A stretch of 64,000 bases of DNA from a virus (Duplodnaviria; Caudoviricetes), in the IMG/VR virus record IMGVR_UViG_3300031912_000009, positions 1,418 to 65,417 of that record; one strand, given 5' to 3'. This document shows positions 10,020-32,001 of this stretch, in pieces; position 1 is the first letter of the stretch; each line of letters opens with the position of its first letter. Position numbers and translations under genes: made by a program. Under the pieces are notes generated by a model that saw only the letters and a list, made by a program, of their open reading frames with translations, made no database searches and was not told the origin of the DNA.

Positions 10020-10021
10020 TC

Positions 10022-10893: not shown

Positions 10894-11808
10894 ATGCGTT
10901 TGGTGATCTCATTGCCGACCAGAGGTCGGCCAGGAAAGCTTGTCGAAACCATTGGCCGCGATCTGATGTGTCTATCACGACCGGACACCATGCTGATGGT
11001 TCAGGTCGATGAAGATGACACGAACACCGTCCAGGCGCTGCAACAAACACAGTTGCGCAAGGATCAGCGTTTGGTGGTCGACGTGCGGCCGCGCGAGGAC
11101 ACGATCGCAGCCAAGTGGAATCGCGCCCTCATAGTCGAGGCCGATGTCTACACATGCTTGGCTGATGACGATCCGCTGGTAACGCCGGGTTCAGATGAAA
11201 AAATTCTGCAAGCTGCCAGTATATTTCCTGACGGCATTGGTGCTGTCTATGGTCATCTATGCAACGCTTCTTTTAGTTGCTGCATTTCTTTTACTAAGCG
11301 GATGACTGATCTTCTCGGTTATATCCAGCCGGAATATTTCCCCTATTGGTTCTGTGACCATTGGACGGATGATCTGATGAGGATGGTCGGGCGCATTGCA
11401 TTTGCCGATGTGCGGACTTTCCAGACAATTGAATTGCGAATGATAGAACCAACTCAGGAGATGCGCGAGCCGGCATGGTGGGCGACGTGGTTCGACGCGA
11501 ATTATCTGGAAAGACGTGAACATGCGCAACGCATCATCACAGCGATCAACGATCCGGATTGGATGAAGCTGATGCATTACAACTGCGCGCCGATGATCGA
11601 TTACCGATCACGTTGGGTCAACGATAATGTGCGCAGAATGTTTTCCTTCGTTGATGTTAAGGACGAGAGATACCAGCGGGTCAAGCAGAAGGCGCTTGAT
11701 GCGGTGCCGGATATCTTATCGAAGTTGCCGCCGCCTGAAGCGGACAAGTTTCGTGAGATGCTGACGCCTCCTACGACGATCTTGAATTTGCGGAGGGCTT
11801 ACGGCTGA
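10894..11808 (+). CDS. GT-A fold (GT2-like) glycosyltransferase
   Basis: N-terminal ISLPTRGRP, DEDD, KWN..., acidic LADDD motif, YWFCDHW. Confidence 0.72.
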   Translation: MRLVISLPTRGRPGKLVETIGRDLMCLSRPDTMLMVQVDEDDTNTVQALQQTQLRKDQRLVVDVRPREDTIAAKWNRALIVEADVYTCLADDDPLVTPGSDEKILQAASIFPDGIGAVYGHLCNASFSCCISFTKRMTDLLGYIQPEYFPYWFCDHWTDDLMRMVGRIAFADVRTFQTIELRMIEPTQEMREPAWWATWFDANYLERREHAQRIITAINDPDWMKLMHYNCAPMIDYRSRWVNDNVRRMFSFVDVKDERYQRVKQKALDAVPDILSKLPPPEADKFREMLTPPTTILNLRRAYG

Positions 11809-13181
11809 TGCACGGCATGTCGGGGAAGAAGATCGTTCTTTGCCACGGCTGTTTTGATCTTTTGCATATTGGTCATATTCGGCACTTGCAGGAAGCTGCC
11901 GAACTTGGCGATGAATTGGTAGTGTCGGTCACACCTGATCATCATGTCCGCAAGGGGTTAAGTCGGCCGTATTTTACACTTACTGAGCGCATGCATTCGT
12001 TACAGGCACTGCGCTGCGTTGACCGGGTCGTTTGGTACGATTCGCGCGATGCAACTGCCGCTATCGCTGAGATCAAGCCGGATTATTACGTCAAGGGTAT
12101 CGATTATGCCGATGTGGGCGATCCTGAACTGCAACGTGAAATCGTCGCGGTTGAGGCTATTGGCGGCTTATTTCGCACGACCAAGGCGCTTAAGCAGGCT
12201 TCGTCATCGCATCTGATCAATACGACGCGGTTGCCGGATAGCGTTCAAATCTATCTGGCTGATGCGAAGAAACGCGGTTTCCGCGACAAGATTTTGGAAG
12301 CCTTCGATGCGGCTGACAAGCTTAAGATCACCTTTGTTGGCGAGGTGATTATCGATGAATATCGCTATGTGTCAGGTCTAGGGAAGCCGTCGAAAGAGTT
12401 TATTTTGGCGACGGCCGAACAAAGCGCGGAAGAGTTTCAGGGCGGTATTGTAGCCGCTTCCCGCCAAGGCGAATTCAAGGATTCGACTTGGTTGTCGGGT
12501 GGTCACGCTATCAGGAAGACACGGTTTGTGGATCAAGACTTCACCAGAAAGCTGTTTGAGGTTTACCAGCGGCTGGATATAGGACACGACGATCGGTTCC
12601 TGCGTGAACTGTCGGACAAGGTGCGTGTATCGGATGTAATTGTAGTGATCGATTTTGGTCATGGCTTAATGCTTCACGGGGCGATCGATGTGGTGAGCCA
12701 TGCCAAGTTTTTGGCGGCGAATGCGCAGACGAACGCTGGCAATGTTGGTTTTAATCCAATCACGCATTATCGCAAGGCCGACTTGATTGTCGTGGACGAA
12801 CCGGAAGCTCGATTGGCCACCCAGCGACGGACCGGGAATTTGGTCAATCTCGGCGATTGGCTATGCAATCTGGTTGATGCGCCACAGATCATTATTACTG
12901 CCGGTAAGAATGGCTCATGGGCCGGATATCGAGCGAAGTCTGGGGCGCGAGCTTTGTCTGGTGATATGATCCCGGCGTTCTCTAGTCGTGGGCTGGACAC
13001 GATGGGTGCCGGCGATGCGTTTCTTGCGGTTGCGGCTCCGCTTGTTGCTACTGGCCTGGAGGTGGAGGCTGCGGCGTTTGCGGGGAATGTTTCCGGTGCG
13101 ATCAAGACGACGATAGTCGGTCACCGTCGCAATGTGCGACGCAATGAATTGATCCAGACTGTCGAAGCGTTGCTGGCATGA
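11808..13181 (+). CDS. Bifunctional sugar-phosphate nucleotidyltransferase / PfkB kinase (HldE/RfaE-like, inverted domain order)
   Basis: N-terminal HGCFDLLHIGH and YVKGIDY; C-terminal PfkB signature DTMGAGDAF and ANAQTNAGN. Confidence 0.9.
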   Translation: MHGMSGKKIVLCHGCFDLLHIGHIRHLQEAAELGDELVVSVTPDHHVRKGLSRPYFTLTERMHSLQALRCVDRVVWYDSRDATAAIAEIKPDYYVKGIDYADVGDPELQREIVAVEAIGGLFRTTKALKQASSSHLINTTRLPDSVQIYLADAKKRGFRDKILEAFDAADKLKITFVGEVIIDEYRYVSGLGKPSKEFILATAEQSAEEFQGGIVAASRQGEFKDSTWLSGGHAIRKTRFVDQDFTRKLFEVYQRLDIGHDDRFLRELSDKVRVSDVIVVIDFGHGLMLHGAIDVVSHAKFLAANAQTNAGNVGFNPITHYRKADLIVVDEPEARLATQRRTGNLVNLGDWLCNLVDAPQIIITAGKNGSWAGYRAKSGARALSGDMIPAFSSRGLDTMGAGDAFLAVAAPLVATGLEVEAAAFAGNVSGAIKTTIVGHRRNVRRNELIQTVEALLA

Positions 13182-13696
13182 TGTATCTGGTCGAATGGCA
13201 CAAGGCACTGGGTCGTGTATGCAATAATATCTATCCAGACTTTGATGCTGTGGTCGAACGACTAAAGCACATGCGTAAGCAAGGGGAAGGCCAATTGATG
13301 TTTATTGGCAATGGCGGTTCGGCCGCTATTGCTTCTCATATGGCCACCGACTTTATGAATAAGGGCCGGTTCAATACGCGGTGTTTTAATGATCTGGCGG
13401 CGCTGACTTGTCTGTCGAATGACTATGGTTATGAGAATGTATTCAGCATGCAGATCGCGCGAGCTAACGGGCTTGGTGATGTTCTGATCGCGATATCGTC
13501 GTCCGGAGAAAGCAAGAATATCTGCCAAGCAGTCGAGATGGCTAAGGCCGGGATCATTACGTTTACGGGTTTCGAGGAAACCAACCGGCTGCGCAGTTTG
13601 GGTCATTATAATTTTTATGTGCCGTCGAAGAATTACGGCATCGTGGAAACTGCGCATCTTGGCTTGTTGCATGCGCTCCTTGAGGCTGTGACATGA
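13178..13696 (+). CDS. gmhA: SIS-domain phosphoheptose isomerase (GmhA-like)
   Basis: GNGGSAAIASH, ALTCLSNDYGYENVFS, AISSSGESKNI, YGIVETAH. Confidence 0.9.
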   Translation: MMYLVEWHKALGRVCNNIYPDFDAVVERLKHMRKQGEGQLMFIGNGGSAAIASHMATDFMNKGRFNTRCFNDLAALTCLSNDYGYENVFSMQIARANGLGDVLIAISSSGESKNICQAVEMAKAGIITFTGFEETNRLRSLGHYNFYVPSKNYGIVETAHLGLLHALLEAVT

Positions 13697-14565
13697 GTTG
13701 GAACGTCGTAGAGAAATTCAGTTTTGATCCAACCGGCGGCAGTGACAATGCCGATGAATTGGCAACGCTGGCAGAAGACTTGCGCGAGTATAAAGCGGCA
13801 AATCGACCGCTGCCGCGGGTGGTCTTCCCTGAAGGGGTTTATAACTTTTCGACATGGCCGAACTTAGCGATCAATGGATTGGAATGTGTGGGCGAAGGCA
13901 ATGTGCTTCTGCGCCATACCGGCTCCGGTCCGGCGATTACGTTTGATGGTGTGTCGACCGGCCCCGGTGGTGGTGGCCAATTCAATATGCTGATCGACAA
14001 TTTCTATATCATGCCGAATGGCAATACGACCGACACGTTTATTCTGAATTCAATCCATCATAGTCTGGTTCGGGTGCATGCGCTTGGTGTTGGTGTGCCA
14101 GGATCTAAGGCAATCAGCATGTATTGGTGCGTGCTGACCGAGTTGAACAACTGTTCGGTGACGCCACACGACGACAAGGTTTTCGGTCCTGGCGGCAGCT
14201 ACGATTGTATCGGTTTGTGGCTCGACAAGGTCACGCAGCCGTCGCATTGGCAGACGACGGCCTGCCGGTTCGTTAATCCGATACTGGAGAATCTGCGGAT
14301 CGGGGCGTGGCTGGAGGATGCTGGCGGTTGCCAATTCACTGGTGGTGCGATCGAGTATTGCACGGAACGGGGGATCGTGATCCGAACCGGCGGCAACAAC
14401 CAGACGCGCAATCTATGGCTAGAAGGTAATAACGAGCGCGATATTTGGTTCAAATACGACACGCACGACAATCGTTTTGAGGTGACCAACGGCAACGCCC
14501 ACGTTCAGAATGACGCAATCCTGGGCGGCAATAACCGGGTGGTTAGCCCATCGGATATCCTATGA
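13693..14565 (+). CDS. Right-handed parallel beta-helix (pectin-lyase-like) protein
   Basis: FDPTGGSDN...VVFPEGVY N-terminal pattern followed by beta-helix-type repeats (FTGGAIE, NLWLEGN). Confidence 0.6.
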   Translation: MSWNVVEKFSFDPTGGSDNADELATLAEDLREYKAANRPLPRVVFPEGVYNFSTWPNLAINGLECVGEGNVLLRHTGSGPAITFDGVSTGPGGGGQFNMLIDNFYIMPNGNTTDTFILNSIHHSLVRVHALGVGVPGSKAISMYWCVLTELNNCSVTPHDDKVFGPGGSYDCIGLWLDKVTQPSHWQTTACRFVNPILENLRIGAWLEDAGGCQFTGGAIEYCTERGIVIRTGGNNQTRNLWLEGNNERDIWFKYDTHDNRFEVTNGNAHVQNDAILGGNNRVVSPSDIL

Positions 14566-14759
14566 AGGCCGCGGAAAACCTCAAGCTGGGCTGGCTGATC
14601 GGTACTGATGATAGCGGCAAGGTCTATCAAATGCGGGATTGGACCGACATGATTGGCGTCTGCGGTATGGATTGTAAGAAGGGCGAAGAGGTTAAGGTGC
14701 TGAGTGATTACGATTCAGTCATGGAAGCTTTGATGCGTGATGCAGCGGACCGGCAATGA
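14562..14759 (+). CDS. Hypothetical protein
   Basis: 65 aa with ATGA overlaps on both sides. Confidence 0.55.
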   Translation: MKAAENLKLGWLIGTDDSGKVYQMRDWTDMIGVCGMDCKKGEEVKVLSDYDSVMEALMRDAADRQ

Positions 14760-15355
14760 GCCAATTTCTAAATGCCAAGGATTTGATGGATTTCGAACGG
14801 GATATCGAACAGCTATTTGCGGCTGGTGCGATCAAATCTCCGGTACATTTGGCCGGTGGCAACGAACACGAACTGATCCGTATCTTTTCCGGCATTAAAA
14901 GCTATGACTGGGTGCTGTGTACTTGGAGGGCGCATTATCATGCATTACTGCGAGGTGTACCGCCCACACAGGTCAAGAAGGCGATTCTTGACGGCCATAG
15001 CATCGCTTTGTGCTTCCCTGCCTATAAATTTCTTTCGTCAGCGCTTGTCGGTGGCATCTGTCCCATTGCCACTGGAATTGCTTGGGCCATCAAACGTCGT
15101 CACGGTCGGGAAGTGGTACACTGTTTCGTGGGTGACATGGCCGTCCGAACTGGCATCTACCATGAATGTCAGCAGTACTGTATGGGACACGACTTACCTG
15201 TCCACTGGATCATCGAGGATAACGGGAAGTCGGTGACCACGAATACGCGCGAGGTTTGGGGGAAGGGCGTGTTCAAGACGGCACCAGACAAGACGGTCTA
15301 TCAATATGAGCTTAACCGCCCCCACGTTGGCATCGGAACGTTTGTCGTATTTTAG
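14756..15355 (+). CDS. Minimal TPP-dependent dehydrogenase E1 alpha-like subunit
   Basis: PVHL..GNE, WRAHYHAL, SSALVGG, TPP motif VGD...EDN; only 199 aa. Confidence 0.85.
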   Translation: MSQFLNAKDLMDFERDIEQLFAAGAIKSPVHLAGGNEHELIRIFSGIKSYDWVLCTWRAHYHALLRGVPPTQVKKAILDGHSIALCFPAYKFLSSALVGGICPIATGIAWAIKRRHGREVVHCFVGDMAVRTGIYHECQQYCMGHDLPVHWIIEDNGKSVTTNTREVWGKGVFKTAPDKTVYQYELNRPHVGIGTFVVF

Positions 15356-15884
15356 TGCGTTGTGCGAGGCGATGAAGCTTTGCGCGCGCCGTGATGCGAT
15401 CTTTATCGGTCAGGGTGTAGGGCTGCATGGCGGTACGACCATGAGCCAAACGCTGATCCATGCGATCCCGTCACAGCGCTGGGAGTTTCCGGTCGCTGAA
15501 GATATGCAGATGGGTTTCTGCATTGGTATGGCACTGGAAGGCCTGTTGCCGGTCTGTATCTTCCCGCGGTGGAATTTCTTCTTATTGGCATGGAACCAAG
15601 CGATCAATCATCTCGATCGGCTGCCACTGTATTCTTACGAGGGATACAATCCGAAGGTGATTATTCGCACGGCTATTCCGTCCACGATACCTTTTAATCC
15701 TGGGCCGCAGCATGACGATGATTTCACTGAGGCCTTTAGTCTGATGACGCGCAGGATCAAGGTGGTGCGGCTAGGGAATGTAGAACAGATTATTCCGGCC
15801 TATAAGGCGGCCTTGGATGAGAACGGATCGACGTTACTTGTTGAGTATACTGATTGCTATAAAAACGAACGGGCGAAGGGATGA
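15306..15884 (+). CDS. Minimal TPP-dependent dehydrogenase E1 beta-like subunit (pyrimidine-binding domain only)
   Basis: IFIGQGV, EFPVAEDMQMGFCIGMALEG, NQAINHLD, GPQH; start may be TTG 15342. Confidence 0.85.
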   Translation: MSLTAPTLASERLSYFSALCEAMKLCARRDAIFIGQGVGLHGGTTMSQTLIHAIPSQRWEFPVAEDMQMGFCIGMALEGLLPVCIFPRWNFFLLAWNQAINHLDRLPLYSYEGYNPKVIIRTAIPSTIPFNPGPQHDDDFTEAFSLMTRRIKVVRLGNVEQIIPAYKAALDENGSTLLVEYTDCYKNERAKG

Positions 15885-16075
15885 GGCAGTGGTTGTTTGC
15901 GATAATGGGTGCGATTGCCTTGGGAGTTGGGCTTGCTAGATCGTATCAACGTGGAACTATCATTTTATCGCTAGCAATTCTGTTTGCGCTTTATACGGCT
16001 ATTGGTCTTATAACTCTGGACGCAAAGCGTTACCTCTGGTGGTACAGGGAAAAGCCAGGGCCGAAGCATGAATAA
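15881..16075 (+). CDS. Small membrane protein (two hydrophobic segments)
   Basis: WLFAIMGAIALGVGLA and IILSLAILFALYTAIGLITL. Confidence 0.6.
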   Translation: MRQWLFAIMGAIALGVGLARSYQRGTIILSLAILFALYTAIGLITLDAKRYLWWYREKPGPKHE

Positions 16076-16262
16076 GGACTTCTATCATGTCACCATCCGG
16101 TTCGGTGCTGGTATTCCGAACTCAACGCAAGGTGAGGTGATGTTGGATTTGGAAAAAGCGCTGCGGGCGCGCGGTTTGCCGGCTGAAGTCTTCAAGGATA
16201 GCATGGGCGATGACAGCAAGTTGCGTCGTGCGATGACGCCAGAACAGCGGGCGAAGCTATGA
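16068..16262 (+). CDS. Hypothetical protein
   Basis: 64 aa, coupled to the radical SAM start. Confidence 0.6.
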   Translation: MNKDFYHVTIRFGAGIPNSTQGEVMLDLEKALRARGLPAEVFKDSMGDDSKLRRAMTPEQRAKL

Positions 16263-17374
16263 GCGACATCCATGAATACCTTTTGGACGGCACGAAAGTT
16301 GGTTGGTGGCGCGATCGTGTTGAAGCGTGGCAGCGAGGAGAGAAAATTGCGCCCGTATCGATGGATGTCGCTTGGACACGGCGGTGTCAGGCAGCGTGTA
16401 CGTTTTGTTTCTCGCAAATGCAAGCCAGTGAAGGTGGCGAGATTACCAAAGAGATCGCCTTGGACTACTTGGACGATGCCGCAGAAATTGGCGTCAAGGG
16501 GATATCGCTTATCTCGGACGGCGAGAGCACTTTGGTTCCCTATTACGCTGAAAGTATTGAACACGCAGCCAAGCTTGGCATTAAGATCGGAGTTGGCTCG
16601 AACGGTATTGCGCTTACGCGCCCGGTCCTAGAGCGCATCCTTCCCCACATCTCGTATCTCCGCTTCAATTTTAGCGCGGGCGAACGCAAGCGTTACGCTG
16701 AAATTATGGGAGTGAAACAGGTATTCTTCGACCGCGTCGTGCAGAATATCAGGGACGCTATGGAGATCGTAAGGCGCGACAATTTGCAATGCACAGTCAA
16801 TATGCAGATGGTCACCATGCCGTCGATGGGCGACCAGATCCTGCCGCTGGCTAAACTTGGTCGCCAGCTTCGACCACACTATGTGATCTTTAAGCATTGT
16901 TCGGATAACGAAGATGGCTTCCTGGGGATGGATTACAGCAAGTATGACGCACTTTACGAAACATTCAAGCAAGCAGAAGCCATGGGGGATGAGGACTTAC
17001 GCATCATAGTCAAGTGGAATAGGCTGGCCGATGAAGGAAAGCGACAGTACTCGCGATGTCTTGGACCTCCATTTCAGTTACAGATTTCAGGCAATGGATT
17101 GGTGTCTACATGCGGTTTTCACTTTAATTCCAAGTACAGGAAATTTCACATGGGGTGGATCGCTGGTGAAGAGAAACAGCGATTCAAGGCAATCTGGGAA
17201 AGTGATCGATATTGGGAGATCGTTCGATACTTAGCATCGGATGAATTCGATCCGCGGTCTAGATGCGGCACGCAGTGCTTGCAGACGCATACTAATAAGT
17301 GGCTGTTCGACTACACTGAAGGTAAGCGAGACTTTCCGGCCTCGCCGGCTCCGCCGCATCTGGAGTTTCTCTAG
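16259..17374 (+). CDS. Radical SAM enzyme with SPASM/twitch-like C-terminal domain
   Basis: CQAACTFC (CX3CX2C), SDGES (GGE-like), C-terminal RCLG...STCG...RCGTQC. Confidence 0.92.
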   Translation: MSDIHEYLLDGTKVGWWRDRVEAWQRGEKIAPVSMDVAWTRRCQAACTFCFSQMQASEGGEITKEIALDYLDDAAEIGVKGISLISDGESTLVPYYAESIEHAAKLGIKIGVGSNGIALTRPVLERILPHISYLRFNFSAGERKRYAEIMGVKQVFFDRVVQNIRDAMEIVRRDNLQCTVNMQMVTMPSMGDQILPLAKLGRQLRPHYVIFKHCSDNEDGFLGMDYSKYDALYETFKQAEAMGDEDLRIIVKWNRLADEGKRQYSRCLGPPFQLQISGNGLVSTCGFHFNSKYRKFHMGWIAGEEKQRFKAIWESDRYWEIVRYLASDEFDPRSRCGTQCLQTHTNKWLFDYTEGKRDFPASPAPPHLEFL

Positions 17375-18929: not shown

Positions 18930-18954
18930 CATTTTAGTGAAATTCTCATTGTAT
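18926..18954 (+). promoter_or_regulatory. Putative sigma70-type promoter for the capsid operon
   Basis: Perfect TTGACA (18926-18931, overlapping the GT stop), 17-nt spacer, weak -10 TTGTAT. Confidence 0.4.
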
Positions 18955-18967
18955 TGCTGTCGAAACC

Positions 18968-18985
18968 CGGTTCAGATCTGAACCG
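18968..18985. repeat. Perfect 18-bp palindrome CGGTTCAGATCTGAACCG
   Basis: Equals its own reverse complement; lies in the leader of the head genes. Confidence 0.9.
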
Positions 18986-19051
18986 TTCCTTTCACATTCG
19001 CCAAGGCAGTGCTTGTCGGGCGGGGTGCATAACCCGCTCGGAGTCGCTGTT

Positions 19052-24601: not shown

Positions 24602-27600
24602 ATGGCCGACCCCAACGGCAGAAACTCACCTCCCGATCTAGGCGCTTATTCGAACGCGGCACCGGCTGCCGGCGTGGCAATGGGCGCGGTTGATGCCAGC
24701 GGCAATCTGCAACCGTTATCGATTTCGCCGACTGGCGGGCTGATCGTTGCCGGGTCGTTTGCGGCTGGGTTTTCGACTACTGCGCTAGCCGTCACGACCC
24801 AAACGAACGGCACGGGCGCCTTGGTATGGCTGGCTCCGACCCAGACTTTGAATGTCGCGATTGGGGCCTCGACGGCCATAGCGACCACGACCCAAGCGGC
24901 TGTGACGGGCGCTATCGTATGGCTCGCCCCTACCCAGACGGTTACCGCGCAAGTCAGCGGATCGGTTCAGGTCAGCGGCACCGTCAGTGTTTCGGGTGCT
25001 TCGTTCTCTTCGACCGCGGTTGCCACCACTACCCAGTCCGGACAATCAGGCGTGACGGGCGCGGTGGTGTGGCTCGGGCCGGCGCAAACGATCACTGCGC
25101 AAGTGTCGGGTCAGGTTCAGGTGTCCGGCACGGTATCGGTTGCGTCCGGCACCGTTTCTGTCTCGGGGCTGACGCCGACCACGACTGCATCCGGCATGAG
25201 TGGTGTGACAGGCTTGCCGGTGTGGGTTGGCAATCCCGGTGGCAATACGACCGTCGTATCCGGAACGGTCACCGTATCCAATCCGATTCAAGTTAGCGGC
25301 CTAACGCCCACGACCACTGCCAGCGGCATGTCGGGGGTCACGGGGCTTCCGGTATGGGTCGGTAATCCTGGCGGCAATACCACGGTGGTGTCCGGCACCG
25401 TCAGCCTTGTGACGGTTAGCTCGGTCGGAACGATCGTCACCCTGCTTGGCACCGTACTGGTGTCTGAAGCGGCGGCGATCTCGATTTCATCGATTGTGGC
25501 TACGACGACGGCCAGCGGCTTAAGCGGTGTCACAGGCTTGCCGGTCTGGGTAGCCAATCCTGGCGGCAACACAACCGTGGTTTCCTTAACCGGCAGTGCG
25601 CTGGTCAGCGGGACCGTTTCGCTTGTGACGGTGTCATCGGTCGGCACGGTGGTTACGCTTCTCGGCACCATCAATGTGTCCGGTCCTGTTCAGATCAGCG
25701 GTATCACGCCGACTACTACAGGTTCGGGTTTGAGTGGTGTTGCTGGTCTTCCGGTGTGGATCGCACCCGGCGGCGGCGCGACGACGGTTGTTTCGTTGAC
25801 GGGAAGTGCGTTGGTCAGTGGCACGGTGTCGATCTCGACTGCTGTGGTTGCCACCACAACGCAAACGGCTGCGACGGGTGAATTGGTATGGCTTGCTGCC
25901 ACGCAAACGCTTGCGGTCATCAGTACTGTCGGCACGGTACTCGGCACTGTTGCGGTTAACGTTGTCGCTGGTGGCGCTGCACCCGGCACAACATTTACTG
26001 GACAGACATCAAATACGGCGCAGCTTGTCTGGTTAGCGCAAACCCAGACGTTGAGTTTGATCAGCACTATCGTGACCGTTCTGGGAACACTTCAGGTTTC
26101 CGGTACGATCCAGATTTCGTCTGTTCAGGTTACGGCCAGCACGCCAACCGCAACTGCGACCGGCATGGTGGTTTGGATGGCCAATCCACCCGGTGCGGCA
26201 AACGCACCCGGCACGACTTTTACGGGTCAGACGTCGAACACGGCCCAACTAGTATGGTTGGCGCAAACGCAGACGTTGTCACTGATCTCCACAATCGTCA
26301 CGGTTCTCAGCACCGTTAATGTCAGCGGTACGGTTCAGTTGTCCGCGGTGACGCCAACAACAACTGCATCTGGATTGTCTGGCGTTACTGGCGTTCCGGT
26401 GTGGGTGGCTAATCCAACGCAATTAAGTGTCAGCGCGCTCGGCACGACGTTCACGGGTCAAACTAGCAACACAGCGCAATTGGTGTGGTTAGCGCAAACG
26501 CAAACTCTGTCGCTGATTTCGACTATCGTCACGATCCAGAACACCGTGATCGTTTCAGGTCCGGTGCAGATCAGCGGTATAACTCCAACCACGACCGCGT
26601 CTGGATTGTCTGGTGTTACTGGACTGCCGGTGTGGATGGTCGGCGGGGCTGGCGGCGGTACGACGCTGATCAGTGTTGTCTCGACCCTAATCACGATCTT
26701 AAGCACCGTTCAGGTCAGCGGCACGGTGATCCTGTCGCAAGCGGCATTCACTACAGCATCGAGTGGATTAACCGCGACGGCAACCGGACTAATCGTTGTC
26801 GCGACCGGGACTGTTTCGGCCGTCGTCACCGGCACGGTATCGGTTTCTGGAACGGTGCCGGTTACAGGAACGATCCAGAACGTTGCGTCGATCTCGACTG
26901 TGTTAGGAACGGTCGTAATCTCTGGTCCCGTTCAAATCAGCGGGATCACACCAACTACCACTGCATCTGGCTTAAGCGGCGTTACCGGACTTCCTGTCTG
27001 GATGGTGGGTGGCGGCGGCGGCGGCACGACATTGATCAGTGTCGTTTCCACACTGATTACGATCCTAAGTACCGTTCAAGTCAGTGGCACCGTTAACCTC
27101 TCGCAAGCTGCATTTACAACGGCTAGCTCGGGCTTAACCGCAACGGCTACTGGTTTGATTGTGGTGGCTACCGGCACGGTCAGTGCGGTGGTTACTGGCA
27201 CGGTTTCGGTTTCTAACACTGTTGCAGTTGCTGCGTCTGGCACAGTTTCGCTGGTCACTATCAGTTCGGTCGGAACGGTAGTCACGTTGCTTGGTACTGT
27301 GCTGGTTAGCATCACACCGTCAGCATTGGTTAGCGGTACGCTTTCATTCTCGGGTGCTGCGTTTACGACGGCCTCGAGCGGCCTGACTGCAACAGCGACT
27401 GGATTGATTGTCGTAGCGACCGGCACGGTGACTGCCGTAGTCACTGGCGTTGTTTCTGTTTCGAACATCGCGACTGGCACCGTGTCGGTTAGCAATGTGG
27501 TTTCGGTGACAGGCACCTCGTTGAATGTGGTCGCGAGTGGCACTGTATCTTTAGTCACTGTCAGTTCAGTCGGCACCATTGTTACGTTGCTTGGCGTAGT

Positions 27601-30169
27601 CGGCGTATCGATCTCGAGCTTGGCAAATACCACGACCCAATCGGCACTCAGTACCGGCATCGGAGTGTGGCTAGCTCCGACACAGACGGTCGGTCTGGTC
27701 AGCACGATCGGCACGGTCGTTACGATCTTGAGTACCGTTCAAGTTAACGTTGTCGCGGGAGGTGCCGCACCGGGTACGACATTCACTGGACAGACTAGCA
27801 ATACCGCGCAGCTTGTTTGGCTCGCTCAGACGCAAACTCTGTCTTTGGTCAGCACCATCGTGACTGTTCTGGGAACGGTTAACGTAGCTATTGTGCCATC
27901 TGCGTTGGTGTCTGGCACGGTTTCGTTGGTAACGATTTCATCTGTTGGCACCATTGTCACTCTGCTTGGTGCGGTGAATATCAGTGGTACGGTTGCAGTC
28001 TCTCAAGCTGCATTCACTACGGCCAGCTCGGGACTTACAGCAACCGCAACCGGATTGATCGTCGTAGCAACTGGCACCGTGACTGCGGTTGTGACTGGTG
28101 TGGTGTCGGTATCGAATATCGCGACCGGGACGATATCCGTTAGCAATGTCGTCAGCGTCACTGGCACCTCACTCAATGTGGTCGCCAGCGGGACTGTGTC
28201 GCTTGTTACGATATCGTCGGTCGGCACGATCGTTACAATTCTTGGTACGCAAGTCGTGAGTGTCGTGCCTGGAGTGTCGGTGTCCGCCGTAGTGTCTGGC
28301 ACCGTCGCGATCTCACAGGCTGCCTATACGACGGCCTCATCGGGACTAACGGCCACTGCAACAGGATTGATCGTAGTGGCCACCGGCACTGTGACGGCTG
28401 TAGTGACTGGCACAGTCTCGCTGGTGACAGTATCTAGCGTTGGCACCGTCGTTACATTGCTTGGCACGGTGCTGATGTCGCTTGTTCCAGGCGGCTCGAT
28501 CTCAGCTATTGGGACCGGCACTCTTTCATTAGTCACGGTCTCATCGGTCGGCACGGTGGTGACGTTATTGGGAACGGTTAACGTTGCACCTGTTCAGCAA
28601 GCCTACACGACTGCATCAAGCGGCCTGACTGCGACTGCAACCGGATTGATAGTTGTTGCTACCGGCACTGTCACGGCTATCGTCAATAGCATCGTCAGCA
28701 CCGTTTTGGTGAACGTAGTCGCGGGCGCGGCGGGCGGCGCGCCGGCTACAGCAACCTCTCAGAGTGCCATGTCCACGGCTATGGGAGTGTGGCTCGCCCC
28801 CACACAGACCATGACCGTGACTGTTGCTACCGGCACGGTCAACGTTACCAGCACGGTGGTTATCAGTGGCACTGTCAGTTTGGTGACCATTTCGAGTGTT
28901 GGAACGATTGTTACCTTATTAGGTGCAGTTAATATTAGCGGTACTATTGCGCAGTCTCAGGCTGCCTATACGACAGCTAGCTCTGGACTTACCGCAACTG
29001 CGACCGGCATCATTGCGGTGGTGACTGGTACTGTGACGGCTACCGTAGTCGGCACGGTCAACGTCGTATCGATCACTGCGCTCAGTACCATAATCACAAT
29101 TCTCGGTACTCAGGTCGTGACGGTTGTGCCGGGATTGTCGGTTAGCGCTGTGGTCAGCGGTACGGTCACTGTCGGCAACACAATCAATGTCACCGCGCCA
29201 GGATTGACGGTCACGACCACGCAATCCGCTTTGACCACGGGTCAACCGATCTGGCTGGCTCCGACCCAGACTATGGGTGTGATATCAACCATTGTCTCAG
29301 TCCTGACAGTCGTCACAATTCTCGGCACTCAGGTCGTCACCGTTGTGCCTGGATTGTCGGTCAGCGCTCAAGTTAGCGGTACAGTTTCGATCAGCGGCGG
29401 CGGCGGCGGTATCGGCACAACGTTTACTGGACAGACCAGCAACACTGCGCAGTTGGTGTGGTTAGCGCAAACGCAAACGTTGAGCGTTCTCAGCACTGTT
29501 GTCACGTTACTTGGAACTGTCAATGTCACCATTGTCAGCAATACGACGAATGTCACCGGCACCGTTTCGCTGGTTACAGTTTCATCGGTTGGCACGATCG
29601 TCACTTTATTAGGAACGATAAATGTTAGCGGCTCGCAGGTGATTACTGGCACTGTCAGTATTAGCGGTGGCGTGACGATGGCACAGTCTGGTCAGACGCA
29701 GGTATTGCTATACTTTACGGGTACAAGCGTACAGAATAACAACCTACTCGCTAGTATCACTCTATATACTGGCAATACACGGGTTGCTGTCACGACGTTA
29801 TATGCGGTCCCGTCAGGTAAGACTCTTAGGATAATGTATATAGCCGGGCTTGCGCTGCTATCTACGGCTGGGGCTGGCGGCACGAACAATGGTTATGGGA
29901 TCGTCCAAGTTCTTTGTGCTACAGCGGCCGCAAGCATCACAAATACCGCCACTGTTGGTGTCGTCGCGCAGGCTTTTTACATCATTAACCCAATGGCTGG
30001 CGCAAGCGGGTCCACATTTTCGCCGCTCCCTCCTCAAACGTCATTTTATGTAGGGGATATCTATGCCGACGTTCCTGGCACCACTACGATTGGTATTTTC
30101 GTTAACCCGCAAGGTACTGGTGCTAACCAACCAACTATAGCAGTAGCGGTCGGTGGATATTTGTTCTGA
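24602..30169 (+). CDS. Giant Thr/Val/Ser/Gly-rich repetitive fibre-like protein (1855 aa)
   Basis: Uninterrupted ORF built from at least four shuffled repeat units, with a distinct C-terminal globular domain. Confidence 0.9.
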   Translation: MADPNGRNSPPDLGAYSNAAPAAGVAMGAVDASGNLQPLSISPTGGLIVAGSFAAGFSTTALAVTTQTNGTGALVWLAPTQTLNVAIGASTAIATTTQAAVTGAIVWLAPTQTVTAQVSGSVQVSGTVSVSGASFSSTAVATTTQSGQSGVTGAVVWLGPAQTITAQVSGQVQVSGTVSVASGTVSVSGLTPTTTASGMSGVTGLPVWVGNPGGNTTVVSGTVTVSNPIQVSGLTPTTTASGMSGVTGLPVWVGNPGGNTTVVSGTVSLVTVSSVGTIVTLLGTVLVSEAAAISISSIVATTTASGLSGVTGLPVWVANPGGNTTVVSLTGSALVSGTVSLVTVSSVGTVVTLLGTINVSGPVQISGITPTTTGSGLSGVAGLPVWIAPGGGATTVVSLTGSALVSGTVSISTAVVATTTQTAATGELVWLAATQTLAVISTVGTVLGTVAVNVVAGGAAPGTTFTGQTSNTAQLVWLAQTQTLSLISTIVTVLGTLQVSGTIQISSVQVTASTPTATATGMVVWMANPPGAANAPGTTFTGQTSNTAQLVWLAQTQTLSLISTIVTVLSTVNVSGTVQLSAVTPTTTASGLSGVTGVPVWVANPTQLSVSALGTTFTGQTSNTAQLVWLAQTQTLSLISTIVTIQNTVIVSGPVQISGITPTTTASGLSGVTGLPVWMVGGAGGGTTLISVVSTLITILSTVQVSGTVILSQAAFTTASSGLTATATGLIVVATGTVSAVVTGTVSVSGTVPVTGTIQNVASISTVLGTVVISGPVQISGITPTTTASGLSGVTGLPVWMVGGGGGGTTLISVVSTLITILSTVQVSGTVNLSQAAFTTASSGLTATATGLIVVATGTVSAVVTGTVSVSNTVAVAASGTVSLVTISSVGTVVTLLGTVLVSITPSALVSGTLSFSGAAFTTASSGLTATATGLIVVATGTVTAVVTGVVSVSNIATGTVSVSNVVSVTGTSLNVVASGTVSLVTVSSVGTIVTLLGVVGVSISSLANTTTQSALSTGIGVWLAPTQTVGLVSTIGTVVTILSTVQVNVVAGGAAPGTTFTGQTSNTAQLVWLAQTQTLSLVSTIVTVLGTVNVAIVPSALVSGTVSLVTISSVGTIVTLLGAVNISGTVAVSQAAFTTASSGLTATATGLIVVATGTVTAVVTGVVSVSNIATGTISVSNVVSVTGTSLNVVASGTVSLVTISSVGTIVTILGTQVVSVVPGVSVSAVVSGTVAISQAAYTTASSGLTATATGLIVVATGTVTAVVTGTVSLVTVSSVGTVVTLLGTVLMSLVPGGSISAIGTGTLSLVTVSSVGTVVTLLGTVNVAPVQQAYTTASSGLTATATGLIVVATGTVTAIVNSIVSTVLVNVVAGAAGGAPATATSQSAMSTAMGVWLAPTQTMTVTVATGTVNVTSTVVISGTVSLVTISSVGTIVTLLGAVNISGTIAQSQAAYTTASSGLTATATGIIAVVTGTVTATVVGTVNVVSITALSTIITILGTQVVTVVPGLSVSAVVSGTVTVGNTINVTAPGLTVTTTQSALTTGQPIWLAPTQTMGVISTIVSVLTVVTILGTQVVTVVPGLSVSAQVSGTVSISGGGGGIGTTFTGQTSNTAQLVWLAQTQTLSVLSTVVTLLGTVNVTIVSNTTNVTGTVSLVTVSSVGTIVTLLGTINVSGSQVITGTVSISGGVTMAQSGQTQVLLYFTGTSVQNNNLLASITLYTGNTRVAVTTLYAVPSGKTLRIMYIAGLALLSTAGAGGTNNGYGIVQVLCATAAASITNTATVGVVAQAFYIINPMAGASGSTFSPLPPQTSFYVGDIYADVPGTTTIGIFVNPQGTGANQPTIAVAVGGYLF

Positions 30170-30186
30170 TAACTGGAGACAGTAGA

Positions 30187-32001
30187 ATGCAGAATTATAT
30201 GTTGGTGCCGCAACAGGGTGTCGAGCCTGCGGATGAATGGATCAGGCTTGGTGTTGAGGCGCAAGTTGCAAATCGATTTGATGATGCCGATCGGCATTAT
30301 CGTCAGGCGCTGCGGGCTGATCCGCGCAATGCCATCGCGACATTGAACTTTGCGATTTTGTATGTACAGCGAGGCAATCTGAATGAAGCATTGCTGACGA
30401 TTGAACGAGCGTTGATGTTCGATAAGGGACATGCGGTCATTGAGATGAACCACGCGCTGATGTTGTTGGATGCTGACCGTATTGATGAAGCGTTGACCGC
30501 AGGAAAACGTGCGGTAGCCATGACGAAAGATCCTAATGAGATCAATCCGAAGCTTGCGCTTGCGATGATCCTTGCGACTGCTGGTCACGCGGCAGATGCG
30601 GTTCCGCTTTATAATGAAATCCTCGATAAGCAACCAGAACATCCGTTGGCCGGACCGAATAGCTGTTTCATTCAAACCTTATGCGATTGCACGCCAGAGG
30701 ATTTATTGGCGCAGCGTAAGCGTTGGTACAGCGCTCATCGGTATAAAGGAACGGTCAAAGGCCATAACGTTCACGATCGATCATGGCCGCGGCCATTGCG
30801 AGTTGGCTATGTATCGCCTGACTTCAAGACACATTCGGCTTCGATGATTTACCGTAATGTAATTATGCATCACGATCTGAATGTTGTGGTGCCGTATTTT
30901 TATTCTACGCTTCCGGTCGATCCGAATACCGATATGTTCACCAAGCAATTTATGGATTCGGCTGGCGATCGCTGGCGAGATCTTGTCGGGAAAACCGATG
31001 ATGAAGCTGAGCGCATGATCCGCAATGATGAGATCGATATTCTGGTCGATCTTGCTGGCCACACCAATGGTAATCGTCTGACGATCTTCACACGGAAGCC
31101 GGCGCCAATCCAAATCTGCGCATGGGGCTTCGCCCATGGAACGGGGTTGCCTGAGATAGATTATTTCTTTGCCGATGAGGTATCGGTGCCGCAGAACGAG
31201 CGGCAATACTTTGCCGAGAAGATCTATGATTTGCCATGCATTCTGACTTACGAGGATGTGGGTCAAGGCGGCATTGGCAATGGTTCCGATCACATTCCGT
31301 TCCGGCAGAATGGCTACATCACCTTTGGCAGTTCCGCTCGTTATGAAAAGCTGTCCGCTGAGTGCTTGAAGGTCTTCTCCGAGATTATGAAACGGGTGCC
31401 TGACGCGGTCCTGCGGCTGAAGGATTCGGCTTATCGCCGCCCTTATGCGATCAAGCGGGTGACGGAAGCAATGCCGGACATCGACCCGAAGCGCCTGCAT
31501 TTTCTGATTGCCACTAGCCATCCGGAACACATGCAGGCTTATCGTGCGGCCGATCTCCAGCTTGATCCGTTTCCCCATGGTGGTGGCGTAGTAGCGCTAG
31601 AACAGATTTTCATGGGATTGCCGATTATCACTCTGCGAGGCCGGCAACCATCTGGTCGTAATACGGCCAGTGTTCTCCACGCCATGGGGCGCGACGAGTG
31701 GATTGCCGACACCAAGGAACAGTATGTGGAGATTGCCGTCCGGTTGGCTGACGATATTAAGACGCTGCGCGCCTGTCGTAATAGTCTGCGCGGTGAACTT
31801 TTGAACTCGCCTGTGGTAAAAGGTTATCGGGAAGCTGTGGAGGCAGCTTACCGGGATATCTGGGAGAAGTTTATCGGCAAGCGGGCGGCACCACAGGCAG
31901 AGGTGTTGCCGCCAGCGAAGAAGAAAGGACGACCGAAGAAGGAAGTGCCAGTTCCCCCACTGACTGGAAACGGCAAGGATGGCCTCGAGCGGCACCTATA
32001 A
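30187..32001 (+). CDS. TPR + SPINDLY/OGT-type glycosyltransferase (CAZy GT41-like)
   Basis: About four N-terminal TPRs; LRVGYVSPDFKTHS, IDILVDLAGHT, KPAPIQ, TGLPEIDY, ITFGS, DLQLDPFPHGGG..MGLPIITL. Confidence 0.93.
   Translation: MQNYMLVPQQGVEPADEWIRLGVEAQVANRFDDADRHYRQALRADPRNAIATLNFAILYVQRGNLNEALLTIERALMFDKGHAVIEMNHALMLLDADRIDEALTAGKRAVAMTKDPNEINPKLALAMILATAGHAADAVPLYNEILDKQPEHPLAGPNSCFIQTLCDCTPEDLLAQRKRWYSAHRYKGTVKGHNVHDRSWPRPLRVGYVSPDFKTHSASMIYRNVIMHHDLNVVVPYFYSTLPVDPNTDMFTKQFMDSAGDRWRDLVGKTDDEAERMIRNDEIDILVDLAGHTNGNRLTIFTRKPAPIQICAWGFAHGTGLPEIDYFFADEVSVPQNERQYFAEKIYDLPCILTYEDVGQGGIGNGSDHIPFRQNGYITFGSSARYEKLSAECLKVFSEIMKRVPDAVLRLKDSAYRRPYAIKRVTEAMPDIDPKRLHFLIATSHPEHMQAYRAADLQLDPFPHGGGVVALEQIFMGLPIITLRGRQPSGRNTASVLHAMGRDEWIADTKEQYVEIAVRLADDIKTLRACRNSLRGELLNSPVVKGYREAVEAAYRDIWEKFIGKRAAPQAEVLPPAKKKGRPKKEVPVPPLTGNGKDGLERHL

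Follow-up and report, generated by a model that had tools for sequence, protein, structure and literature searches.

A candidate phage cassette for glycosylating its own giant fibre with a phage-made sugar

The question raised by this locus is whether a phage encodes, among its morphogenesis genes, a dedicated system for glycosylating one of its own virion proteins. The window, which is the whole stretch of 64,000 nucleotides that was analysed, is a 96%-complete phage contig in IMG/VR, and all of the genes discussed lie on the + strand within the phage morphogenesis module. A sequence-only reading had proposed that sugar-pathway genes, two GT-A enzymes, a GT41 transferase and a giant Ser/Thr-rich acceptor together form a virion-glycosylation system. 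Its coordinates and morphogenesis setting were borne out, with profile calls for TerL, portal, major capsid protein and adaptor; overall, its observation was partly confirmed and its interpretation partly supported. The features are as follows.

491-2275, +, TerL
4938-7388, +, portal
10894-11808, +, GT-like ORF 1, 304 aa, lineage-specific accessory (phrog_14945 'glycosyltransferase', E 2.7e-5)
11808-13181, +, bifunctional nucleotidyltransferase-kinase, HldE-like with reversed domain order (PF01467, CTP_transf_like; PF00294, PfkB)
13178-13696, +, GmhA-like sugar-phosphate isomerase, SIS (PF13580, SIS_2; best match TIGR00441 gmhA)
13693-14565, +, unknown 290-aa protein (sub-threshold Beta_helix match only)
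14562-14759, +, small coupled ORF, 65 aa, overlapping the preceding gene's stop and the E1-alpha-like start
14756-15355, +, minimal ThDP enzyme, E1-alpha-like PP-domain subunit, core gene (PF00676, E1_dh)
15306-15884, +, minimal ThDP enzyme, E1-beta-like Pyr-domain subunit, core gene (PF02779, Transket_pyr)
15881-16075, +, small ORF, 64 aa, two hydrophobic segments, coupled to the E1-beta stop
16068-16262, +, conserved 64-aa companion of the radical SAM enzyme
16259-17374, +, radical SAM/SPASM enzyme (rSAM), core gene (PF04055, PF13186; CxxxCxxC at residues 43-50)
17374-18114, +, SAM-dependent methyltransferase, accessory (PF08241/PF13489)
18111-18929, +, GT-like ORF 2, 272 aa, putative, lineage-specific (single DAD motif after a hydrophobic strand; weak Atlas labels)
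20244-21158, +, major capsid protein, Mu-like gpT (PF10124, phrog_371)
24602-29641, +, putative giant fibre protein: N-terminal anchor and charge-free T/V/G/S/A mosaic-repeat shaft
29642-30169, +, its C-terminal TNF/C1q/BclA-type jelly-roll knob, terminating in GYLF (AF2 model, pLDDT 83)
30187-32001, +, TPR-GT41 protein glycosyltransferase, SPINDLY/OGT-like, with rebuilt donor pocket (PF13844 and TPRs)
31979-32674, +, SU10-type head-to-tail adaptor, immediately 3' of GT41 (PF24175); a second copy lies at 33541-34257

Sugar-pathway genes and their cellular relatives

The sugar cluster (10894-18929) forms an unbroken, translationally coupled run between the portal and capsid genes, and the coupling is complete only when the three small ORFs at 14562-14759, 15881-16075 and 16068-16262 are included. 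Within this run the nucleotidyltransferase-kinase, GmhA-like isomerase, E1 pair, rSAM and methyltransferase were recovered. The E1-alpha assignment at 13693-14565 was not; this ORF encodes the 290-aa protein, for which no NCBIfam or PHROG match and no homologue across related loci was found, and the E1-alpha-like gene sits at 14756-15355. The two supposed GT-A identities also fell away, as neither ORF gave a Pfam, NCBIfam or PDB sequence match. Profile support is limited to GT-like ORF 1 and is weak; its Atlas neighbours are viral clusters, some of them labelled GT2, and GT-like ORF 2 matches phrog_1574, which is annotated as unknown function. A further GT-B-like gene was seen in the early region (58939-60042). 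Homologues of the two GT-like ORFs are confined to the two closest relatives (G001 and G002), outside the conserved core, and the proposed extension of a glycan by GT-A enzymes is not supported. Since these ORFs are lineage-specific, the GT41 itself probably transfers the phage-made sugar.

The nucleotidyltransferase-kinase carries HxGH and DTMGAGD motifs, and its best NCBIfam matches were rfaE_dom_II (107.6 bits) and rfaE_dom_I (49.5 bits). The isomerase carries GNGGS and SSSGES motifs and scored 89.5 bits against TIGR00441, for which the cut-off is 209. These best matches, all below the NCBIfam equivalog cut-offs, suggest that the product of the cluster is a heptose-type activated sugar. No GmhB-type phosphatase is present within the window. 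The two ThDP subunits are both half-length, and the PF00676 match of the E1-alpha-like subunit spans the first half of the profile. Its ThDP-Mg motif is retained as GDM...E-N, and GD[MG]...E-N is invariant in 11 homologues. In the relatives, the E1-beta-like gene is invariably 3' of the E1-alpha-like gene, and the latter adjoins GT41 in L005, L007, L008, L014, L015, L017, L061 and L062. The methyltransferase has a homologue in L055, and a Methyltransf_11 gene is found in the L061 cassette. No family was found for the 65-aa ORF, and no homologue of the 64-aa ORF at 15881-16075 was found among the relatives.

The rSAM is the most conserved member of the gene set, being 58-85% identical in 8 of 8 GT41-bearing IMG/VR records searched. 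Its 64-aa companion belongs to no Pfam family, and ORFs 42-59% identical to it occur in 9 related phage loci, positioned at the rSAM gene or just upstream. Full-length homologues of the rSAM (45-49% identical) were found in 14 cellular genomes near NTase-PfkB and GmhA-like genes. Most of these loci carry both, with the fusion in the same domain order as in the phage, and their neighbours include a ThDP transketolase/E1 pair. Judged by these neighbourhoods, the rSAM belongs to sugar metabolism. The cellular loci differ from the phage cassette in adding an SDR, an HAD phosphatase and a second rSAM, and their transferases are of the Maf, GT2 or PMT kinds; L023 and L026, the two loci that were inspected, have the SDR, HAD phosphatase and glycosyltransferases alongside the rSAM. 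No GT41 or giant knob protein occurs in the cellular rSAM loci, and no characterised sugar product for them was found in the literature. One example is an Alphaproteobacteria MAG. In Butyrivibrio sp. NC2002, the rSAM locus probably serves protein glycosylation too, because it adjoins two Maf-type (PF01973) genes, and in other bacteria Maf proteins glycosylate flagellin.

The giant protein and the TPR-GT41 enzyme

The ORF at 24602-30169 encodes a single protein of 1855 aa that is an extreme composition outlier among the window's proteins (S+T 31%, T 19%, V 18%, G 12%) and has 11 charged residues in total. It had been read as a Ser/Thr repeat protein and acceptor fibre, but it proved to be neither a simple repeat nor of low complexity: it is a mosaic of modules with a folded C-terminal domain. 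The shaft consists of about four recurrent modules of 25-50 aa with 20 W-centred motifs, and no tandem repeat was detected at the DNA level of the ORF. The family consensus is TTTT..TG..VWLAPTQT (204 copies in 14 proteins). No confident AF2 model of the shaft was obtained. The knob is conserved across all relatives, in a family of 184 representatives in which it is C-terminal in every case. VIA Z scores of the knob model were 11.4 to 4-1BBL and 7.6-8.8 to C1q, BclA, ExsFA, PRD1 P5 and a cyanophage fibre tip, and the BFVD matches are viral collagen/BclB/C1q proteins. The nearly charge-free mosaic shaft ending in a knob of the TNF/C1q/BclA type suggests that the giant protein is a fibre. Gene position points to its presence in the virion, and it is probably a head or neck fibre because the gene lies between the head genes and the adaptor.

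The enzyme that follows is a TPR-GT41, as had been read. It scored 140 bits against PF13844 (cut-off 25) and 277 bits against SPINDLY over residues 15-564, which is near full length, compared with 24 bits against HMW1C. The SPINDLY/OGT-like character of the enzyme argues against the Asn-linked option that had been left open. In common with Arabidopsis SPINDLY and human and bacterial OGT (CAZy GT41; 7Y4I, 8DTF, 3PE3, 2JLB), it joins TPRs to a GT-B region, and as in SPINDLY no further domain is inserted between the two. It retains equivalents of the catalytic Lys K665, of H495 and S496 and of the base-stacking H728, as well as three Asn-ladder positions of the TPR lumen; 120 of 120 homologues keep the catalytic Lys/His/Ser. 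In contrast to SPINDLY and OGT, it has only about five TPRs, and its donor-contact residues are replaced clade-wide. The SPINDLY donor-contact residues N661, Y744 and T748 are replaced, T748 by V or I across the phage clade, and the replacements N662>R, A664>E, Y744>H and T747>G are shared by all 13 phage enzymes compared and by 118-120 of 120 metagenomic homologues. The phage GT41 may have lost the classical activity, although the invariance of these replacements argues for a function of the enzyme. The sequence-only reading had GT41 prime the acceptor and the GT-A enzymes add the phage-made sugar. Because sugar genes adjoin GT41 in many relatives and the donor pocket is invariantly rebuilt, the enzyme itself probably uses the phage-made donor and does not prime with a common sugar. 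SPINDLY and OGT act on hundreds of regulatory targets, whereas the phage enzyme is linked with a sugar pathway of its own and a single giant candidate substrate.

Co-occurrence across relatives and rival explanations

Many uncultured phages share a conserved core of giant knob fibre, TPR-GT41, rSAM with its 64-aa companion, E1 alpha/beta and nucleotidyltransferase. The kinase and the GmhA-like isomerase often supplement this core and are missing from several core cassettes. Among loci reached by similarity searches, which are phylogenetically related and were counted without regard to kinship, a charge-free giant ORF lies 0-6 kb upstream of GT41 in 9 of 12 IMG/VR loci that were found from GT41; L009 has its giant ORF elsewhere in the record, and 2 of the 12 are cut fragments. 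Every sufficiently complete GT41 record has a giant-family protein and an rSAM (E1-alpha in 4 of 5, rSAM in all 8 searched). In the reverse direction, L015 and L017, which were found from the knob profile only, carry GT41, E1 alpha/beta, rSAM and NTase within 7 kb, and L016 carries rSAM and NTase before its contig ends. The VWLAPTQT motif on its own led to further contigs, among them a fragment ending in GT41 and a complete genome that encodes two GT41 enzymes. Two independent metagenome contigs (L061 and L062) show the order rSAM-NTase-giant-...-GT41-(kinase)-E1a-E1b. The co-occurrence check proposed earlier thus held in both directions, and the central idea of a dedicated phage system of GT41, phage-made sugar and giant fibre survived it. 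The location of the cassette and its gene order differ among phage backbones (in L010 and L012, TerL identity is only 24-25%), a pattern that favours functional linkage.

The GT41 could instead act on other virion proteins (capsid, decoration or tail) or on many, with the giant fibre as a neighbour or as one target. The structural proteins g217, g424, g224, g88, g162, g138 and g562 are 3-9% charged with 19-21% S+T, in relatives one to four ORFs of low charge separate GT41 from the giant gene, and capsid and tail-tube subunits are modified by mycobacteriophage transferases (Freeman et al. 2023, as described in PMC12619734). However, it is the giant-family protein that travels with GT41 over unrelated backbones, the intervening ORFs vary, and in the window GT41 is directly 3' of the giant gene, so we consider this explanation unlikely. 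Action on the host (LPS, capsule, or host proteins in takeover or superinfection exclusion) or on phage DNA would fit with heptose, which is an LPS core sugar, and with the further GT-B-like gene of the early region. DNA or O-antigen is often modified by phage transferases, according to a review (PMC12619734). The strict linkage to the giant fibre would be left unexplained, though, and members of the GT41 family are soluble enzymes that glycosylate proteins and bind peptides in a TPR lumen, whose Asn ladder is partly retained here. The genes are translationally coupled in a late structural operon, and no hydroxymethylase or other DNA-hypermodification gene was found among the scanned ORFs. Such a role appears improbable.

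A comparably small chance is given to the giant protein being something other than a virion fibre, such as an internal protein, a scaffold or an aggregation-prone matrix or adhesive that lysis sets free, or to GT41 being mainly a TPR chaperone for it. The giant protein has no homologue in any characterised virion, only gene position places it in one, and its shaft gave no confident model; but its knob class caps trimeric fibres (C1q, BclA/BclB, PRD1 P5, cyanophage short tail fibre), its gene sits inside structural modules, and a pure chaperone would not need the invariant catalytic residues. It is very improbable that the rSAM and its companion modify the giant protein by epimerisation or cross-links, as RiPP maturases do, and not the sugar. 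Peptide maturation is the typical role of SPASM enzymes, the best PDB match is SkfB (weak, E 2.6e-4), and the rSAM gene is often immediately 5' of the NTase and giant genes, but the close full-length homologues lie in cellular sugar-nucleotide loci that have neither a giant protein nor GT41. On balance, and with moderate confidence, we favour a self-contained phage cassette for glycosylating the phage's own fibre; that the fibre is glycosylated and that it is present in the virion are what we infer from the sequences.

Comparison with known systems and proposed mechanism

Mycobacteriophage virion transferases are of the GT-A type, and to our knowledge mycobacteriophages encode no nucleotide-sugar pathway; unlike them, this phage combines a GT41 with its own sugar pathway and a dedicated giant fibre. 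The two systems showed no relationship in sequence. In the account of Freeman et al. (2023; PMC10527164) given in PMC12619734, phage-encoded transferases of the structural module glycosylate mycobacteriophage virion proteins, with the glycans on the C-termini of capsid and tail-tube subunits. Transferases in the structural module are common to both, and virion glycosylation is shown there and predicted here. A Thr-rich repetitive shaft with a C1q/TNF-type knob is shared with BclA/BclB of the Bacillus exosporium, BclA3/SgtA of C. difficile and the collagen-like/C1q fibres of giant viruses (knob VIA Z 7.6-7.9 to BclA and F-BclA). In the BclA type, a dedicated enzyme O-links a dedicated unusual sugar (anthrose) to Thr residues of the shaft. 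The phage shaft differs in being a Val/Thr/Gly/Ser mosaic with no G-x-y repeat, and its transferase is a GT41, whereas that of BclA systems is GT2-type. AIDA-I/Aah and TibA/TibC (BAHT family), HMW1/HMW1C and SRRP/GtfAB also pair a large repetitive protein with a linked, dedicated cytoplasmic glycosyltransferase. For AIDA-I and TibA the donor is ADP-heptose, of the class also suggested for the phage cassette, but no BAHT/GT9 domain was found among the scanned proteins. HMW1C is a GT41 without TPRs. The phage cassette differs from all of these adhesin systems in having no secretion signals or accessory Sec genes and in serving a phage virion, not a bacterial surface. GT41 and the knob are absent from cultured phages, and a literature search found no published description of a comparable system in phages.

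In the favoured reading of a fibre-glycosylating cassette, the isomerase, kinase and nucleotidyltransferase would make an NDP-heptose-type sugar during late expression; where the isomerase and kinase genes are absent, the nucleotidyltransferase might capture a sugar-1-phosphate of the host. The rSAM and ThDP enzymes would tailor this sugar, for instance by oxidising it and by branching it at C2 or extending its chain, and in this phage it would additionally be methylated. The cytoplasmic GT41 would hold extended stretches of the nascent fibre in its TPR lumen and, with its donor pocket rebuilt relative to OGT/SPINDLY, transfer the private sugar onto Thr/Ser within recurring motifs of the TTTT..TG..VWLAPTQT type. 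In this lineage, the methyltransferase and both GT-like ORFs would be optional elaborations. Dense O-glycosylation may keep the 1855-residue, uncharged, Val/Thr-rich protein soluble and yield a glycan-coated fibre. If this is true, the phage would carry a virion fibre coated with a sugar of its own making, a system without a described phage counterpart.

Genome setting and the sugar cluster

The window covers 64 kb of an IMG/VR virus record 65.4 kb long, for which CheckV estimates 96% completeness, and the GC content of the window is approximately 54%. All of the sizeable genes from position 1 to about 52 kb are encoded on the + strand, and no tRNA genes were found in the window. The following structural and other phage genes were located:

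491-2275, +, large terminase, a structural gene
4938-7388, +, portal, a structural gene
20244-21158, +, major capsid protein, Mu-gpT-like
31979-32674 and 33541-34257, +, pair of paralogous SU10-type adaptors in one operon, separated by about 900 bases
34929-37007, +, virion structural protein, with tail proteins further downstream
51402-51935, +, Amidase_3 endolysin
54527-55989, -, pair of YqaJ exonuclease and ERF recombinase
59959-61104, +, MT-A70 DNA methyltransferase

The best terminase match among GenBank phages (40% identity) belongs to a metagenomic Caudoviricetes record, and terminases of isolates reach 30-36% identity. A megablast comparison of the 18-33 kb region with GenBank phages gave no match. 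The lineage is uncultured and has an adaptor of podovirus type.

The sugar cluster occupies positions 10894-18929. Its recognizable members are:

11808-13181, +, NTase-PfkB fusion, a cytidylyltransferase-like nucleotidyltransferase domain followed by a PfkB kinase; the best curated matches are the two HldE halves, in the order opposite to HldE
13178-13696, +, SIS protein; the best match is GmhA at 89.5 bits, below the cut-off of 209
14756-15355 and 15306-15884, +, E1a/E1b-type ThDP enzyme, PP and Pyr halves, each about half of the normal length
16259-17374, +, radical SAM/SPASM enzyme (rSAM), by profile
17374-18114, +, class I methyltransferase, by profile

The NTase-PfkB fusion matched rfaE_dom_II (heptose-1-P adenylyltransferase) at 107.6 bits against a cut-off of 181.5, and rfaE_dom_I (heptose-7-P kinase) at 49.5 against 345. 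The catalytic motifs in the cluster are intact (HxGH, DTMGAGD, GNGGS/SSSGES and CxxxCxxC), and the ThDP-Mg motif GDM...E-N is invariant among eleven homologues. The possibility that E1a and E1b are dead remnants was rejected on the grounds of the invariance of GD[MG]...E-N and by the existence of equally short forms in archaea. No HAD domain that would indicate a GmhB-type phosphatase was found in the cluster ORFs scanned. Three small coupled ORFs fill the apparent gaps, so the cluster is a single unbroken, translationally coupled chain. One small ORF of 64 aa (16068-16262, +) lies directly 5' of the rSAM gene. Nine related phage loci have counterparts with 42-59% identity, located either at rSAM or a short distance 5' of it. 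It matched no known family and may be a partner or carrier of rSAM.

Two assignments made in the sequence-only reading of this DNA were not retained. The ORF at 13693-14565, which had been taken for E1-alpha, encodes a protein of no recognised family instead. The two supposed GT-A enzymes (10894-11808 and 18111-18929) had no match in Pfam, NCBIfam or PDB sequences and carry only weak labels: the first matched phrog_14945 'glycosyltransferase' at E 2.7e-5 and has Atlas neighbours in viral clusters partly labelled GT2, and the second showed a single DAD motif and weak Atlas labels, with nothing further. A third glycosyltransferase-like gene, with the domain PF13524 (Glyco_trans_1_2), is located at 58939-60042 (-) in the early/recombination region. 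No BAHT transferase of the TibC/Aah type was found among the window proteins scanned against Pfam, with the small ORFs partly scanned.

The GT41 enzyme and the giant knob protein

The glycosyltransferase encoded at 30187-32001 is by its sequence a member of the GT41 family of PF13844 type (140.4 bits against a cut-off of 25), with about five TPRs (TPR_19, TPR_2 and TPR_16 matches). Its closest solved relative is Arabidopsis SPINDLY, at 277 bits over residues 15-564, followed by human OGT at 159 bits and XcOGT at 100. The HMW1C/NGT chains reached only 24.5 bits; this low similarity and the presence of TPRs ruled out an HMW1C-type N-glycosyltransferase. The match to NF049992 was 25 bits against a cut-off of 1000.

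In SPINDLY, the reported donor contacts are N661, Y744 and T748, and Lys665 is essential (PMC9715652). When the residues of the phage enzyme were mapped onto SPINDLY through a HMMER alignment, using the residue roles of that study, K388 was found to correspond to SPY K665/OGT K842 and H216/S217 to H495/S496. These positions and the base-stacking H728 are conserved in all 13 phage enzymes compared. The donor contacts are replaced in the same 13 enzymes (N661 by A/G/W, Y744 by H, and T748 by V/I/C), with N662>R, A664>E and T747>G as further invariant changes. Because the SPINDLY/OGT donor contacts are replaced, the enzyme was not classed as a fucosyl- or GlcNAc-transferase. In the Asn ladder of the TPR lumen, the equivalents of N334 and N368 are invariant, that of N436 is kept in 12/13, and those of N300 and N402 are not Asn. 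The catalytic motifs were kept in 120/120 metagenomic homologues, these being the best 120 (54-79% identity, on contigs up to 127 kb), with R[YFH]EK in 120/120 and PHxGG in 118/120. Judging from these residues, GT41 looks active, with a donor that appears to be neither UDP-GlcNAc nor GDP-fucose.

The giant protein encoded by the adjacent gene (24602-30169) is by far the most extreme in composition among the proteins of the genome, with 1855 residues (T 19%, V 18%, G 12%, S 12%, A 10%) and charged residues numbering 11 in total. Its sequence is not low-complexity filler but is assembled, mosaic-like, from recurrent modules of 25-50 residues, with 20 Trp-centred motifs among them. The consensus TTTT-x-[S/Q]-x-x-[V/A]-T-G-x-x-V-W-L-A-P-T-Q-T was derived from 204 copies in 14 family members. 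Tandem Repeats Finder detected no DNA-level tandem repeat in the gene, and the repeats are thus protein-level and diverged. There is no G-x-y triplet periodicity, and neither Collagen nor any other Pfam family was matched; a collagen-like protein of the BclA family was ruled out by the lack of G-x-y repeats.

A C-terminal domain of approximately 170 residues that ends in GYLF(P), here called the knob (29642-30169), is common to all relatives. Among 1.84 billion proteins, no more than 184 representatives were matched by its profile. In every one the domain is C-terminal, and in strong matches it is almost always preceded by a charge-free composition like that of the giant protein. Searches of Pfam, PHROGs and PDB sequences with the giant protein and the knob gave no match. 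An AlphaFold model of the knob built from a 50-sequence alignment (pLDDT 83) showed a ten-strand jelly roll of the TNF/C1q type, and an AF2 model of the last 300 residues from 10 sequences reached pLDDT 50 and left the shaft unmodelled. With VIA-align, the Z scores of the knob were 11.4 to 4-1BBL, 8.8 to the cyanophage short tail fibre tip, 8.5 to the C1q head, 8.3 to ExsFA, 8.0 to the PRD1 P5 knob, and 7.6-7.9 to BclA and F-BclA. Foldseek agreed weakly with a TNF/C1q knob fold, and the best named matches in the viral library BFVD were collagen-repeat, BclB-C-terminal and C1q proteins of giant viruses and phages (E 1e-6 to 1e-4). The knob is therefore predicted to belong to the C1q/TNF-like class, at fold level only. 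Since this class caps trimeric fibres, the giant protein is read as an N-terminal anchor, a long shaft and a distal knob.

Distant knob relatives (P0116-P0150, E about 1e-5, ending in GYEY) occur on normally charged phage proteins. One of them, at 10001-12136 of locus L020, has no GT41 nearby. The normal charge of these relatives and the absence of GT41 from L020 indicate that the knob is older than the glycosylation cassette.

Distribution in phages and cells

The forward search from GT41 yielded 12 IMG/VR loci, two of which were left as truncated fragments. Nine contain a charge-free giant ORF of 514-1746 aa located 0-6 kb upstream of GT41, and in a tenth (L009) a giant-family ORF lies elsewhere in the record. 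Co-occurrence of GT41, giant ORF and sugar genes, the check proposed by the sequence-only reading, was thus borne out, with a giant-family ORF in 10/12 GT41 loci and fragments making up the rest; these samples were all obtained through similarity searches and are related by descent, and the counts are not phylogenetically corrected. The rSAM gene was present in 8/8 records searched whole (58-85% identity) and E1-alpha in 4/5, the exception being a 27%-complete fragment. In four loci (L005, L007, L008 and L014), the kinase, isomerase, E1a/E1b and rSAM genes directly adjoin GT41.

Two reverse searches were performed. The knob profile led to L015 and L017, which carry GT41, E1a/E1b, rSAM and NTase no more than 7 kb from the giant gene, and to L016, in which an rSAM gene and NTase are followed by the end of the contig; L018 and L019 were left out as contigs that were too short. 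The sources of the relatives include groundwater and soil, L017 being from a Hainich contig. The L016 rSAM/SPASM gene (7118-9493) is 791 aa long and contains an intein (PF14890). A scan for a degenerate VWLAPTQT DNA motif matched 19 stretches, 4 of which were chance matches by ORF composition. Among the others were a complete genome with two GT41 genes and one fragment that ends in GT41; the remaining genuine members of the family lie on fragments of 14-54% completeness. In that complete genome (G011, IMGVR_UViG_3300047509_000106, locus L040), one GT41 gene has an in-frame TGA and the other was matched in two pieces.

Independent NCBI and Logan contigs showed the order [64-aa ORF]-rSAM-NTase-giant-(small ORFs)-GT41-(kinase)-E1a-E1b. 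In L010 and L012, the terminase is only 24-25% identical, and the cassette adjoins the terminase rather than lying between head and adaptor. The cassette is present in different phage backbones. The kinase and isomerase are frequent members; the optional ones are the methyltransferase and the GT-like genes. The two GT-like ORFs have homologues only in the two closest relatives (G001 and G002), which rules out GT-A enzymes as core members and leaves the giant fibre, GT41, rSAM with its 64-aa companion, E1a/E1b and NTase as the core. The sequence-only observation holds with corrections, and its interpretation is partly supported in a sharper form: GT41, the private sugar pathway and the knob-capped giant fibre make up the conserved unit, and the supposed GT-A enzymes are peripheral. 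In tblastn searches of 50,697 phage records, neither GT41 nor the knob had a match, and in the same records rSAM gave only matches of about 24% identity.

In cells, rSAM was found in 15 loci when one genome per prokaryotic species was considered, and 14 of them encode proteins 45-49% identical over the full length. They derive from Butyrivibrio, other Lachnospiraceae, an alphaproteobacterial MAG, Desulfobacteraceae, Latescibacterota and archaea. Most have a reversed-order NTase-PfkB fusion and a GmhA-like gene alongside, and several have a ThDP pair in the form of a split transketolase, full-length E1 alpha/beta, or the same short form as the phage. The alphaproteobacterial locus also encodes B12-rSAM enzymes, an SDR, a GT2 and a PMT-type transferase. 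The Butyrivibrio locus (L026) has the following content:

NZ_KL370880.1 (Butyrivibrio sp. NC2002), 5132-20704, two MptE-like genes (PF01973, Maf-type), two rSAM/SPASM genes, split transketolase, HAD phosphatase, SDR, NTase-PfkB, GmhA-like gene and glycosyltransferases

The PF13524 domain also occurs in this locus, and its HAD gene is in contrast to the phage cluster ORFs scanned. Maf proteins of other bacteria glycosylate flagellin. L026 seems to encode a heptose-derived sugar pathway that is as yet uncharacterised, and the combination of rSAM with the minimal ThDP enzyme and reversed-order HldE, which also occurs in Lachnospiraceae, Proteobacteria and archaea, likewise appears uncharacterised; literature searches turned up no description of such a pathway.

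No phage-type GT41 was found in the rSAM-bearing cellular loci or genomes, where matches were at the TPR level only. The occurrence of rSAM in cellular sugar loci indicates that it is part of a nucleotide-sugar pathway of cellular origin that phages have re-paired with GT41, and the same context argues strongly against a role of rSAM in peptide maturation. Judging from the heptose-type front end, the product may be an NDP-heptose. We speculate that the SPASM dehydrogenase-like rSAM and the ThDP enzyme carry out sugar oxidation and C2 addition, or that the ThDP enzyme supplies a ketose-phosphate precursor.

Proposed mechanism and significance

The best explanation, to which we give somewhat better than an even chance, is a self-contained late phage system that glycosylates its own fibre with a private activated sugar. 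The phage would make this sugar during late expression, and GT41 probably uses it directly. The TPR-GT41 would thread extended segments of the nascent fibre in the cytoplasm and O-glycosylate Thr/Ser of the fibre repeat motifs, for which TTTQAAVTGQLVWLAPTQT is a candidate acceptor peptide stretch, and the glycosylated trimeric fibre would then be mounted on the particle. Because the protein has 1855 residues, 32% Val+Leu+Ile and almost no charge, a glycan coat would plausibly be needed for solubility. The full picture is offered tentatively, at slightly less than an even chance: a mucin-like glycocalyx on widespread uncultured phages, formed by an OGT/SPINDLY-family enzyme with a re-engineered donor pocket, a private heptose-derived nucleotide sugar tailored by radical SAM and ThDP enzymes, and dense O-glycosylation of the giant, charge-free, beta-rich fibre with its C1q/TNF-like knob.

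We consider it unlikely that GT41 targets other low-charge structural proteins, in addition to the giant protein or instead of it. The genome composition survey did reveal several such proteins in the structural module (19013-19666, 21181-22455 and 23057-23731), with an unusually low charge of 3-8% and S+T of about 20%, and these could be further GT41 substrates. It is quite improbable that the system is aimed at the host or at DNA, and we place at the same low level the idea that the giant protein, whose virion location is read from gene position only, is not a virion fibre or that GT41 is a chaperone. Direct action of rSAM on the protein itself seems very improbable, as the cellular loci place rSAM with sugar genes.

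The logic of the proposed fibre glycosylation by the phage's own cassette is like that of BclA with its dedicated transferase, AIDA-I/Aah heptosylation and HMW1/HMW1C, but the cassette belongs to none of these families. Phage-encoded virion glycosylation has been described in mycobacteriophages, with glycans carried by the C-termini of the capsid and tail-tube proteins (Freeman 2023, as cited in PMC12619734). The present system differs in its transferase family, its private sugar pathway and its putative dedicated fibre substrate. A search for literature on GT41 and phage virions, or on phage-encoded OGT and capsid, returned no relevant paper.

If the full picture is correct, it would mark the first GT41 system from any bacterial virus, give a SPINDLY-like enzyme of the bacterial world its first defined class of natural substrates, and reveal a new sugar pathway, one that phages share with bacterial loci next to genes of Maf type (the flagellin-glycosylation type). 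To our knowledge, bacterial-type SPINDLY/OGT-like enzymes are very common in genomes and have almost no known substrates; the cassette names a co-inherited substrate candidate and a candidate donor pathway for GT41, which makes the question testable by simple co-expression. We know of virion glycosylation shown so far only for mycobacteriophage capsid and tail proteins, and the cassette would extend it to another enzyme family, adding a phage-made sugar and a dedicated fibre. The system is widespread and undescribed, and the existence of at least 120 clusters with the same pocket motifs (54-79% identity) suggests an ecologically common trait that was missed by cultured phages. Such a trait would have a bearing on adsorption, on particle stability in soil or groundwater, and on immune or defence recognition.
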